Below, in pieces: positions 1,805 to 62,012 of a stretch of 64,000 nucleotides of DNA (position 1 is its first letter; each line of letters opens with the position of its first letter). This DNA is from Octopus vulgaris (lineage: Eukaryota), in contig OX597836.1 of NCBI GenBank assembly GCA_951406725.2, positions 10,230,001 through 10,294,000 on the forward strand. Direction: 5' to 3'. The position numbers were made by a program, and so were the translations under genes. The notes beneath the pieces are model-generated. The model saw only the letters and a program-made list of their open reading frames with translations, had not been told where the DNA came from and ran no database searches.

Positions 1805-1844
1805 AAGAAATTTGAAAAGCTGAACGCGAAACCGGTTATTTCTT
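1805..1844 (+). ncRNA. Minimal hammerhead ribozyme, U3-A8 core variant, in PLE 3' terminal repeat
   Basis: aagaaat|TTGAAAA|gc-tgaac-gc|GAAA|ccgg|TT|atttctt: 7-bp stem I, palindromic stem III, about 90 nt after the PLE stop codon. Confidence 0.75.
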
Positions 1845-2054
1845 CAAAAACTATGTCATTGTAGGAAACAAATTTATAACATTCTTCAGACATAATGACT
1901 CAAATATATATTTTTTAACCTTTTAAAACAAGCCTTCTGTAGTTTTTTCACTTTTTACTATTTTCTCTCTCTCTCTCTCTCTCTCTCTCTCTATATATAT
2001 ATATATATATATATATATATATATATATATATATATATGTATGTATACATATAT

Positions 2055-2212
2055 ACAACGGGCTTCTTTCAGTTTCCGTCTACCAAATCCACTCACAAGG
2101 CTTTGGTCGGCCCTAGGCTATAGTAGAAGACACTTGCCCAAGGTGCCACGCAGTGGGACTGAACCCGGAACCATGTGGTTGGTAAGCAAGCTACTTACCT
2201 CACAGCCACTTC
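2055..2212 (-). mobile_element. SINE family A, tRNA-like head half (partner of 517-755)
   Basis: Reverse complement reads gtggctgtgaggtaag (A box), ggttcagtccc (B box) and accttgggcaagt (CORE-like). Confidence 0.85.
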
Positions 2213-2619
2213 TAGACCTATAAACAATTTGCGCAGATCGTTCAGCAAGAAATTCCCATCTGTCGCCTACGACAGGCAAGTGCACAATATCTGTACAAGC
2301 ATATATGCCTATCACTATAAGAAGGTGCATGGCCTAGCGGTTAGGATTTTGCTATGACAATCAGGATGTTGATTCGATTTCCGGACCGGGCTGTATTCTT
2401 CAGCAAAATACTATATTTCATGCTGCATTGTGATCATTTCGACATCTGACTTTGGTACCTCGATCACATGTTCAGGGAACGTCGAATTTGATGGCGGAAG
2501 TGAGCTAATGTATAGTGCAAACATTTGATCACCATAAACAAATCATCTGTGTATGTATGTATGTATGTATGTATGTATGTATGTATGTATTTATGTATGT
2601 ATGTATGTATGTATGTATT

Positions 2620-3030
2620 AGTAGAAGAAGAGAGGGAAAATAAAGAAAGCTTCTAACAATGCAGAAAGTTTTACGAAATACCTTTATATTTCGTACATAA
2701 CGGCCTATCTTCAGAAGGAAGCAGCCCAAGAGATGTCTAGTTACATCGTTATTTTATTTTTAACTGCTCGCCGTTTGGGTTAACAGCAGCAATGGTAACT
2801 CTCCAACTGCTGGTGCGGACAACTCTTCAACTGTTGGTCGCTGTGTACATATTTTTATGTGGTGGTGGTGAAGGATGGTGTTGGTGGCATATCTTATGAT
2901 GCTTGTCGTAGTGGCCGTGGTGTTTTCATAGGAGCCACAGGCCCATCTCCGAACGACTGTTAATTTTCGGGTTGAGGCGGTGGATCAGTATAGCTTCCTT
3001 GATACAAATCGTGCTACTAGGACTCAAGAG
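2620..3030 (-). mobile_element. PLE 3' remnant (GIY-YIG C-terminus plus terminal repeat)
   Basis: Minus strand at ~2945-3005 translates IKEAILIHRLNPKINSRSE, a GIY-YIG C-terminal pattern, followed downstream by a hammerhead motif. Confidence 0.65.
2681..2718 (-). ncRNA. Minimal hammerhead ribozyme (degenerate stem II)
   Basis: Minus strand: cctt|CTGAAGA|taggccgttatgtac|GAAA|ta|TA|aagg. Confidence 0.6.
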
Positions 3031-4246
3031 AGTACCATTACATCATATTCTACCACACTGCACCATTTTCTACCACACTGCAAATTCTTCCACCACATTA
3101 CACCACTTTCTACCATGCTATATTACACTACCAAACGACACTATACGACATTTTACTACGCTGCATTACCTTCTATTGCACTCTATTACCTTAGATTCCT
3201 CTGCCATTACAGTATGTTGTTTTAGAAAGAGAACCACTGTGTCCTAAGGCAGTTACTACAAACGATATTATTTATATATCGATTCTATAAAATTATTTCC
3301 AACGACTGTAATGGATGAAAGGGTGCCGAAAATCTCGGAAGTTTTTATTTGAAATTGGTTTTCTCCAAATCGGTTGTAGCACCAACACAGTCGACAACAA
3401 CAGCCGCAATCAGAAGAAAACAACAGTAACATCGATAAAAGCACCGTGTGAGGTGAGTTTCTGTGGGATCGATTCATTCGTGAGAATTGACAACTAAATC
3501 TTCTCTTAAATCATATCCAATCGTCATTGGAAAGACCAAAACCAAAAACAAAAGAGGACACTTTGGATAATTTGTGTAGTTGTAAATATATCCTTTAAGA
3601 AATTACTGATTATCAGCCTTACTCGAACGCGGTCGATCCGTGATGGACCCACCTACTCCTCCCCATCCTCATCACCAAGGAGGAAGAGTGAGGGAGAGAG
3701 ACGGAAGAAAAACAACGGTGAAGGGGGATCCCTCACTCTTCCTCCTTGACTCTCTCGTTGCTCACACGTGACCAACGGCTACCGTTCTTTTTCCCTCTTG
3801 CTTTGCAAGAGACAAGACGTACTTTTGCCTGTCTCCTGTCACAGCTCCTTTCTCCAGCGTTCACTACTTCACCTCGTTATGGCTTAACAACCCTCACTGT
3901 TTGTTTTTACTGTTTTGTTCTTACTATCTTGCTTTAGTTGCCACTTTAACCCTCCGCAAAAAATCGCAAATTTTATTTAAATTGCTTTGCGGGAAGGATT
4001 GTTTTAACGGAGTCGCGTCTTGTCCTAACCTTCGAACGTGGAGTAGATAAAACAGGGGACAACTGATGAAGGGATTGTTCTTTATGTTGCCCGTCTCAAT
4101 TATCTTTTTGTTTCTTTCGTTGTCCGAAAAAAGTTCGTTTTCCATGTTCTTGTTTTTTATGTTCTCGCTTTTCATTTTGTTCACGTTTTTTATTTGACGT
4201 CCTGTACCCATATATGCATGTATATATACATATATATATGTAGGTA

Positions 4247-59024: not shown

Positions 59025-59428
59025 TATACTCTTCTACTCTTTTACTTGTTTCAGTCATTTGACTGCGGCTATGCTGGGGCACCGCCTTTAGTCGAGCAAC
59101 TCGACCCCGGGACTTATTCTTTTTGTAAGCCCAGTACTTATTTTATCGGTCTCTTTTGCCGAACCGCTAAGTGACGGGGACATAAACACACCAGCATCGG
59201 TTGTCAAGCAATGCTAGGGGGACAAACACAGATACACAAACACACACATATATACATATATATACGACGGGCTTCTTTCAGTTTCCGTCTACCAAATCCA
59301 CTCACAAGGCATTGGTCGGCCCGAGGCTATAGTAGAAGACACTTGCTCAAGGTTGCACGTAGTGGGACTGAACCCGGAACCATGTGGTTGGTAAGCAAGT
59401 TACTTACCACACAGCCACTCCTGCGCCT
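59025..59428 (-). mobile_element. SINE family A, full length
   Basis: Family consensus match. Confidence 0.9.
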
Positions 59429-59799
59429 ATATATATACTATATTATAGAATGTTAGCAAATATAAAAGATATTCGAAACACGTCATAATGGTGTATTTAT
59501 TTATTCATGTCTGTAATGCAATTTTCACTCGTAATAGAAATATTATGTAATGATTCCTCTCATAAATCACCATTGCGTGTTTCTACATATAATACGCACA
59601 CACAAACACACGCACAAAAATATGCACACACACAGATACACAAGTAAGTACATAAATGCAAAACAAGGTGGGAAAAAATAGTACTCGAATACCTAAGGTA
59701 GAGCAATATGCTTTTATTAAAGCGGCAACATCTTCACAAAACTTTTACTCCGACCCCATTCGTCGGACAGTTGTGATGAATGCTGAAGAGTATAAGTGT

Positions 59800-61420
59800 G
59801 CGAGCTGGCTGAAACGTTAGCACACCGGGTGAAATTGCGTAGCCGTATTTTGTCTGGCGTTACGTTCTGAGTTCAAATTCCGCCGAGGTCGACTTTGCCT
59901 TTCATCCTTTCGAGGTCGATTTAATAAGTACCAGTTACGCACTGGAGTCGATGTAATCGACTTAATCCCTTTGTCTGTCCTTGTTTGTCCCCTCTATGTT
60001 TAGCCCCTTGTAGTAATGAAATAGGTATTTCGTCTGTCTTTATGTTCTGAGTTCAAATTGAGAAACTAAGAAACGTTAGCACGCCGGGCAAAATGCTTAG
60101 AGATATTTTGTCTGCCGTTATGTTCTGAGTTCAAATTCCGCCGAGGTCGATTTTGTCTTTCATCCTTTCGAGGTCGATTTAATAAGTACCAGTTACGCAT
60201 TGGAGTCGATATAATCGACTTAATCCGTTTGTCTGTCCTTGTTTGTCCCCTCTATGTTTAGGCCCCTGAGAGCAATAAAGAAATAGATATTAACAATCTA
60301 TATGTCATTTTCATGAGAATGCTAGCAACGTATACGACATTTTTATATCGACATTGACAGTGAGTTTGACATTTTTAGAGCAACATCAGCAATGGACAGG
60401 ATATTTTTTAAATAGTGATATTTTTAATGGGTTAGACAGTGAGTTGACTGAATAGTTAGCACGTTGGACAAAATGCTTAGCAGCGTTTATTCTAACTCCA
60501 TTACATTCTGAGTTCAAATCCTGCCAAGGTCGACTTTACCCTTTATCCTTTCGGAGTCGATGAAATGAGTAACGGTTGAGCATTGAGGCCTTGTGCCTGT
60601 AATAGAAAGGAGATTATCAACGGGTATGACATTTTTATAGCGATATTAACAATGTGTATGACATTTGTATGGCGATATTAGTAATGGATATGACATCTTT
60701 ATGGCGATATTACCAATAAGGACGACATATTTATAGTAATATTAGCAACGGAAAGGGAGGCGAGCTGACGGAATTGTTAGCATACCGGATAAAACGCTTA
60801 GCGGCATTTCTTCCGTATTTACGATCTTTGTTGAAATTCCGCCGTGGTCGACTTTGCCTTTCATCCTTTCGGATTCGATAAAATAAGTACTAGTTGAGTG
60901 CTGGAATCGCTGTAATCGACTAACCCCTCCCCCGAAATTGCTGACCTTGTGCCAAAATGTGAAATCAATGTTAGCAATGGATACATTTTTTTAACGATAT
61001 TAACAATGGATATAAGGCGGCGAGCTGGCAGAAACGTTAGCACGCCGGGCGAAACGCATAGCCGTATTTCGTCTGCCGTTATATTCAGAGTTCAAATTCC
61101 GCCGAGGTCGACTTCGCCTTTCATTCTTTCGGGGTGATAAATTAAATCCAGTTACACACTGGGGTCGATGTAATTGACTTAATCCGTTTGTCTGTCCTTG
61201 TTTGTCCTCTCTGTGTTCAGCCCCTTGTGGGTAGTAAAGAAATAGGTATTTCGTCTGTAGTTACGTTCTGAGTTCAAATTCTGCCGTGGTCAACTTTGAC
61301 TTTCATCCTTTCGGGGTCGATTAAATAAGTACCAGTTAGTTGCGCACTGGGGTCGATGTAATCGACTGGCCCCCGTACCCCCAAACTGTCGGACCTTGTG
61401 CCTAGAGTAGAAAAGAATAG
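59800..61420 (+). mobile_element. Cluster of at least 6 co-oriented SINE family B copies interleaved with a 32-bp minisatellite
   Basis: Repeated gttctgagttcaaattccgccgaggtcgactttgcc. Minisatellite gatattaacaatgtgtatgacatttgtatggc at 60287-60430, 60612-60752 and 60965-61012. Confidence 0.85.
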
Positions 61421-61977
61421 TGTTATATAAATTGCCCACCCTTGGCTAATACTGCGTGGTTTGCTACCTCCGGAAGTCGACACGTCTTCATGTTGTTTAG
61501 TTAGCGACATTTCGATGTAGGACGTCAACATGTCGTGAGATGTCAACACACACTACCCACTTTGTCACCTGTCACACACAGAATAACACTCTTTTAGTGA
61601 CTAGTACACTATCTGTTCATACATTAGATTCGTATAATCGTTACATGTCTATAGTCTTAGCTCTTACTTTCGTATACACCCAGTCACATGGATATATATA
61701 TGACGACTGTAACGTGTATGTATGTATGTAGAAAACATTTATATACGAGACAATAACAAAGGCAGGCGGTCATGACAGATGTAAACAAAGTGCACACTCT
61801 CGATAATCTGTATATTTATATGCAAATGAGGACATGTAGACGCATGCATACACATGTATACATACATGTATACATAAGTACATACATACATTAAAGCAAA
61901 TCAAAAACAGAAACGGAACAGCAAGAGTCAAAAAGACGTACGCAGCGAATGTATAAGCGTCATGCTCAGTTTAAGGT

Positions 61978-62012
61978 GGTTGTCGTTTCGAGCGTGGCTC
62001 TTCGTCAGAAAG
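61978..62012 (-). ncRNA. Degenerate hammerhead motif (cleavage-site U lost)
   Basis: cttt|CTGACGA|a gagc-cac-gctc|GAAA|cg|AC|aacc. Confidence 0.45.

Follow-up and report, generated by a model that had tools for sequence, protein, structure and literature searches.

Hammerhead motifs with family-wide variant cores in probable terminal repeats of Penelope-like elements in a 64-kb stretch of Octopus vulgaris DNA

A stretch of 64,000 nucleotides of Octopus vulgaris DNA (assembly GCA_951406725.2, contig OX597836.1, positions 10,230,001 to 10,294,000; hereafter the window) carries what we identify from sequence as about a dozen leftover ends of Penelope-like elements (PLEs), most of them with a hammerhead ribozyme motif. 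In our judgment these sites are probably the leftover terminal repeats of several PLE families in which variant catalytic cores are family-wide: cores whose tertiary 3-8 pair is U3-A8 or G3-C8 would be likely to cut, as dimers or aided by protein, whereas cores in which A6 is replaced by U (A6U) would be weakened in cutting, with their fold under selection. The repeat families, their core states, the linkage of the 1805 U3-A8 and U6 families (families are named here by window position or core state) to open reading frames (ORFs), and the covariation of the 3-8 pair were observed directly. The window is microsatellite-rich animal DNA of 37% G+C and comes from an assembly of 2.8 Gb.

A first-pass annotation of the window had proposed about ten PLE-type hammerheads at 11 places, and core segments are present at all 11. 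The window was scanned with a strict descriptor that left positions 3, 6, 7, and 8 free and required stems I and II, GAAA, a palindromic stem III, an H17 other than G and a score of at least 18. Six matches were obtained, compared with a mean of 0.3 and a maximum of 2 in 20 local dinucleotide shuffles. Only four of the 11 listed sites pass (N3 at 1812+, 14779-, 36994+, and 40736-); the other seven are decayed or truncated, and two strict matches (9874+ and 33518-) had been missed. Palindromes of 4-8 nt are present in all six strict matches. Stems in type I order, together with the core, GAAA, and UH, are complete at four listed sites and the two additional ones, and in relatives of five others (4247, 12416, 19287, 35348, and 52856), of which 12416, 19287, 35348, and 52856 are imperfect copies, short-stemmed or decayed, of repeats that have the motif in other copies. 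The core types had been read correctly, with U3-A8 at 1805 and 19287 (separate families), G3-C8 at 36990 and U6 at 14748, although an extra nucleotide between A9 and G10.1 in the motifs at 14748, 19287, 35348, 36990, and 61978 had gone unremarked. A further candidate at 55576+ (score 15.6) was rejected as simple-repeat noise. The best 150 of the 704 Rfam matches in the window, nearly all of them microsatellite-driven miRNA matches, include no hammerhead, and a repeat search of the window was dominated by microsatellites. The features are as follows.

808..1713, + strand: 3' half of a PLE ORF (reverse transcriptase [RT] thumb, CxxxxCxxC linker, GIY-YIG endonuclease), 5'-truncated; ORF 553-1713.
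1805..1844, + strand: hammerhead with U3-A8 core (U3 1812, A8 1817), stem I of 7 bp, stem II of 2 bp and 6-nt palindrome; strict match; 3' terminal repeat of ORF 553-1713.
2681..2718, - strand: decayed C3-G8 motif, stem II without closing pair; in a repeat with 44 matches.
4247..4278, + strand: incomplete hammerhead, a U6-family copy truncated inside the core; 5' side lacks C3 and 5' stem I.
9869..9923, + strand: hammerhead with UUGCUGA core, new relative to the first-pass annotation; strict match.
12416..12461, - strand: C3-G8 motif, stem I of 3 bp, stem II of 7 bp, 8-nt palindrome; 7 homologous segments in the sampled DNA.
14747..14784, - strand: minimal hammerhead with U6 core (CUGUAGA plus extra A) and 4-nt palindrome; terminal repeat of the most abundant family.
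19287..19324, - strand: U3-A8 motif of a second family, at the center of a head-to-head inverted insertion (about 19200-19440).
33462..33523, - strand: canonical CUGACGA hammerhead, also new; strict match; no second copy in the 2.05 Mb sampled.
35348..35392, + strand: C3-G8 minimal hammerhead with decayed stems II and III; relatives restore both stems and read CUGAUGA in 9 of 15.
36990..37034, + strand: hammerhead with G3-C8 core (G3 36994, C8 36999), extra G, stem II of 5 bp and 6-nt palindrome, in a short element at about 36978-37120; strict match.
40655..40740, - strand: C3-G8 hammerhead with long stem II and 8-nt palindrome; strict match.
52857..52912, + strand: C3-G8 motif with decayed stem II and near-palindromic (imperfect) stem III; homologs in 3 other loci.
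61978..62012, - strand: decayed C3-G8, A6 motif, U16.1 and stem I lost, stem III broken; distantly resembles a sister lineage of the U6 family.

The 3-8 pair was followed in a sample of 117 evenly spaced 10-kb stretches (1.17 Mb), in which 26 matches scored at least 22 against a shuffle mean of 1.6. The pair is Watson-Crick in all 26 (18 C-G, 5 G-C, and 3 U-A) versus 6 of 16 in shuffles, and at scores of at least 18 it is Watson-Crick in 35 of 41 versus 17 of 51. The Watson-Crick pair and its natural covariation had been anticipated, and equal hit rates in shuffled sequence, which the first-pass annotation had named as a refuting outcome, do not occur, but U3-A8 covariation in PLE hammerheads had already been published (Cervera and De la Pena, 2014, PMC4209133; here and below, papers are cited from excerpts). 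Eight of the 26 strong matches have a swapped 3-8 pair and six are without A6, in agreement with the proposal that CUGANGA-based searches miss such variants. With about half of the strong matches in the spaced sample escaping such a search, censuses of animal hammerheads may undercount. All matches in 2.05 Mb formed 34 clusters, seven of which, weak and single-copy, do not enter the tally; four of the 27 listed clusters were dropped as simple or low-complexity sequence with scores of 18-22 and a mismatched 3-8 pair, and the remaining 23 are 17 C-G, 5 U-A, and 1 G-C, with no A-U.

At its 3' end the window ORF at 553-1713 encodes a CxxxxCxxC linker and then a GIY-YIG domain, and the motif at 1812 follows about 100 nt further on. 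Its Pfam match to GIY-YIG is weak (E = 0.036), and the window PLE ORF is 95% identical to residues 483-782 of an 801-residue frame in locus L071. By this linkage, the 1805 family constitutes the terminal repeats of an element with RT and GIY-YIG domains. Genome-wide the family has 422 matches, with U3 and A8 together in 98 of the first 100, and in loci chosen by the endonuclease alone the U3-A8 core is present in all 32 rows that cover the motif; in one subfamily a stem II pair has changed from C-G to U-A. We read U3-A8 as an inherited state of this family, not as decay.

The G3-C8 family, found in the window at 36990, has 3,585 genome matches when positions 3, 6, 7, and 8 are left free. G3 and C8 occur together in 94 of the first 100 and C3-G8 in none, from which we take this state also to be inherited rather than a product of decay. 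The copies examined measure only about 145-215 nt, some of them with a 3' tail, and, like those of the 19287 family, begin near the core, often stand head-to-head and lie in TA repeats. The U3-A8 core is present in 22 of 38 homologous segments of the 19287 family, which has U17 and the extra G in common with the 36990 family, along with the greater part of stem II and a related palindrome. The score of the alignment between the two was reached by 3 of 1000 shuffles, in which shuffling destroys the shared core. There is thus a weak hint that the G3-C8 family may derive from a U3-A8 ancestor. The insertion at 19200-19440 is itself inverted head-to-head with the hammerhead core in a hairpin loop, and most of its relatives have a sharply defined 5' end, some 6 nt ahead of the core.

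The family at 14748 and 4247, referred to as the U6 family, has 15,707 genome matches, only 141 of which have C3-A6-G8. U6 is present in 96 of the first 100 matches, N7 in the first 20 is A in seven, U in six, C in four and G in three, and reversed-pattern controls for the family counts returned 0 matches. This family, too, lies behind an ORF with RT and GIY-YIG domains (Pfam RVT_1, E = 6e-8; GIY-YIG weak, E = 0.008), so that the PLE origin proposed earlier is borne out for two families. From the 150 best matches, 14 stretches were selected for their long frames; these frames span 641-1,214 residues, and 13 of the stretches are at 97-99% identity to the copy L226. In eight of the 14, a hammerhead lies on both sides of a frame of 1,024-1,214 residues, the two being 4.45-4.57 kb apart, a layout that we assign to an endonuclease-bearing PLE. 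The motifs in the young long-frame elements read CUGUUGA with the extra A in 22 of 22, and we conclude from their sequences that A6U is a family state, carried in both repeats of young intact elements. Reversion to CUGANGA, also named there as a refuting outcome, does not occur in the U3-A8, G3-C8, or U6 families. Young U6 elements with about 99% identity to L226 also stand in tandem at L234-L235 (G000:C6:117389500-117403499), where three hammerheads follow one another at intervals of about 4.47 kb.

The invariant A6 of the CUGA turn is kept in most families and is absent in the U6 family. To follow position 6, 112 copies were collected by downstream sequence or protein; 19 of them, among which was the only A6 copy (L259), do not cover the whole motif and were set aside, and the 93 motif-spanning copies have U6 in 88 and C6 in five. 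Three subfamilies, defined on flanks alone and 20-30% apart there, differ at 3 of 39 motif columns versus 29 of 103 flank columns (Fisher p = 0.012). The differing motif columns are N7, H17, and the outer end of stem I, the other core positions being unchanged, and H17 is A or U, with G in 1 of 93 copies. Because the subfamilies differ within the motif mainly at N7 and H17, positions left free in the established hammerhead consensus (quoted in PMC7151607), the fold of the U6 motif seems to be selected. In assembled contigs the hammerhead motif is present under four organism labels, H17 being the only listed difference within it. An A6 subfamily, suggested by three loci, was rejected, as A6 is present in 1 of 29 rows; A6 is kept in a more distant sister lineage, and U6 is therefore likely derived. 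In the older U6 subfamily (L241-L269), five of the 29 rows have C6 and may form a small branch of the A6C type. The sister lineage (L128:5108(-), L139, L137, L104, L121, L159, and others) comprises CUGACGA and CCGACGA subfamilies with distinct flanks, and in the latter, a U4C subfamily, C4 is present in 13 of 28 rows.

As to the earlier claim of selection on ribozyme function, it is the fold that seems to be selected, which is not equal to selection on cleavage. A6U is likely to weaken cutting or to abolish it, because mutants of the CUGA region have low activity (Roberts et al., 2023, PMC9901934) and the core strand is predicted to be paired in a copy with U6 and U7. In the explanation that we favor, reverse transcription would start downstream of the 3' hammerhead and in most cases end prematurely; the short stubs that lie in TA microsatellites, often in head-to-head inversion, would be its products. 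The palindromic stem III would form only between two copies and single transcripts would remain uncut, while the 3-8 pair, having to remain Watson-Crick, would change only by double substitution. Since reverse transcription would need a template unbroken across the 3' hammerhead, weak cutting might carry little penalty, and slow cutting would be tolerated or even favored, allowing U6 to persist. Dimer targets are predicted to lie 3-4 kcal/mol above the minimum for U3-A8 and G3-C8, 2 for one canonical copy and 24 for another; given this range of 2 to 24 kcal/mol for canonical targets, folding is not decisive.

Several observations weigh against this explanation. A single origin may underlie all five U3-A8 clusters, and G3-C8 represents one family; given the possible shared ancestry of the U-A clusters, there may have been as few as two independent changes of the 3-8 pair. 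Neither the G3-C8 nor the 19287 family could be linked to an ORF, the copies examined being short and showing no long upstream part in common. The test on U6 subfamilies depends on three clusters and on dependent columns, and loop II is conserved as strongly as the core in this family, which a non-catalytic role would explain too. For the young U6-U7 copy, folding predicts that the core strand pairs with A14-A15.1-C-G, with an unpaired probability of 0.02 for U6, and the dimer target is predicted 14 kcal/mol above the dimer minimum; as the canonical copy at 33518 misfolds as much, this prediction is weak either way. Finally, none of 31 U6-family, 22 sister-family, or 11 G3-C8 copies has its 5' end at the cleavage site, a result for the U6 family that circle and no-cut models both predict, and the 5' ends of the 19287 family, at +4, +7, and +10, are near the cleavage site and not on it.

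It is conceivable, though we think it unlikely, that the retroelements of this genome have in effect mutagenized the hammerhead core in nature, that G3-C8, U4C, and A6U are all working cores and that a recently expanding autonomous family tunes cutting by A6U, its RNA being cut only when a partner copy or the element's own protein refolds it. If so, the hammerhead consensus would be wider and the number of animal hammerheads in such genomes would be roughly doubled.

Among the alternatives, the one that survives best, while still improbable to our minds, is that the hammerhead-shaped RNA is kept as a structural signal, for protein binding, template folding or promoter overlap, and that cutting in the animal is not needed. 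The fixation of U6 in young intact elements and the U4C subfamily of the sister lineage, both in the U-turn, would fit such a role, as would the lack of stubs that start at the cut site. In an anole PLE, moreover, catalytic mutants left insertion in vitro unaffected, and none of the RNA reads started at the cut site (Frangieh et al., 2024, PMC11167929). However, the strict Watson-Crick 3-8 pair across families fits catalytic tolerances rather than a generic hairpin, the variation of the U6 subfamilies at N7 and H17 matches those tolerances as well, and minimal PLE hammerheads do cut weakly as dimers (PMC4209133). We hold it to be quite doubtful that A6U cores occur in nature with full activity, the extra A that follows A9, the dimer setting or the element's protein making up for the change. 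U6 has persisted across diverged subfamilies within an otherwise unchanged core, no A6 subfamily was found, and natural A6C cuts with Mn2+ (PMC7151607); against this stand the mutagenesis of the CUGA region, the predicted alternative pairing through U6, and the frequency of the extra A in canonical PLE motifs (PMC4209133, Fig. S3), which leaves it no special compensating part. Post-insertion decay or chance matching, which does hold for the single copies at 9874, 4247, 61978, and 2681, can be dismissed for the U3-A8, G3-C8, and U6 families on the strength of the family counts, the empty reversed-pattern controls and the shuffles.

The site at 9874 (UUGCUGA) is a case in point. As a natural U3/C6 variant it was rejected, its relatives reading CUGAUGA in 15 of 29 rows and C6 in none; we attribute its core to decay of a CUGAUGA family, and for this reason a single copy cannot establish a core variant. 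The families at 12416-12461 and 52857-52912 have an apparent extra nucleotide just before G12. Elsewhere in the window, a 126-residue frame at 34032-34412 resembles the C-terminal end of an RTE-type LINE protein, and at 33061-33170 a 54-nt portion of a repeat that is very frequent throughout the window, and that we assume to be SINE-like, stands twice in tandem.

The young, intact and very abundant U6 family offers a direct test of whether PLEs depend on cutting for their spread. The G3-C8 family, in turn, is the natural counterpart of a classic laboratory swap and completes the covariation evidence for the 3-8 tertiary pair. Neither a natural G3-C8 nor a natural A6U core was found in the literature searched, in which subscription journals were mostly missing and which did not extend to the closest paper, Lünse 2017. 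By its title, that report (Lünse, Weinberg, Breaker, RNA Biol 14:1499) is said to concern small PLE-associated variants cleaving as dimers, and it may already list these cores.

With respect to known systems, the class of motif, its abundance and the U3-A8 core are already known. Minimal type I hammerheads in metazoan PLE terminal repeats were described by Cervera and De la Pena (PMC4209133), with U3-A8 families amounting to about 1,300 matches in Schistosoma, and share with ours the type I order, the short stem I, the palindromic or absent stem III, the G10.1-C11.1 pair, the frequent extra nucleotide between 9 and 10.1, the many families per genome, and the mostly solitary copies with opposite-strand pairs. 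A stem III formed between two copies was proposed, and weakly shown, for the Schistosoma motifs. The representatives in Fig. S3 of that work have only CUGANGA, UUGANAA, and one UUGAAGA, with no G3-C8, U6, or C4 and no cephalopod; this absence is partly by design, as the descriptors fixed the core. The excerpted parts of the retrozyme preprint 10.64898/2026.07.22.740005 and the reviews PMC6765202 and PMC6155905 add nothing on core variants.

The canonical tertiary-stabilized hammerhead of viroid or Schistosoma type is characterized by a stable intramolecular stem III and by contacts between loops I and II; the window copies differ in that stem III is a bare palindrome and stem II is variable, either 2-7 bp or long. 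Non-LTR retrozymes are head-to-tail arrays of short units, whereas the window copies are dispersed stubs, and no tandem repeat overlapped a motif among 150 of the 215 repeats listed for the window. Neptune/Nematis-type PLEs (Craig et al., 10.1101/2021.04.23.441226) have in common with ours the RT, the Zn-finger-like linker, and the C-terminal GIY-YIG, as well as partial tandems, inverted 5' copies, a tail and insertion in microsatellites, the clade being assigned here by motifs seen in the translations and not by a tree.

Natural U3-A8, A6C (slow and Mn2+-preferring) and viroid U4C are known (Perreault et al., 2011, PMC3088659; Naghdi et al., 2020, PMC7151607) as rare single examples in phages, bacteria, and viroids, those excerpts including neither G3-C8 nor A6U, whereas the variants described here form families of thousands. 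Engineered C3G/G8C partly rescues a PLE hammerhead that needs protein to cut, a PLE for which uncut RNA is the main template (PMC11167929), and within the CUGA region no change but the G-C swap restored activity, the others having low activity (PMC9901934). The engineered swaps (PMC11167929, PMC9901934, and PMC3884650) are laboratory mutants. G3-C8 is thus known as an engineered, partly active swap, and the same swapped pair appears here, to judge from its copies in the octopus genome, as the natural state of a family.

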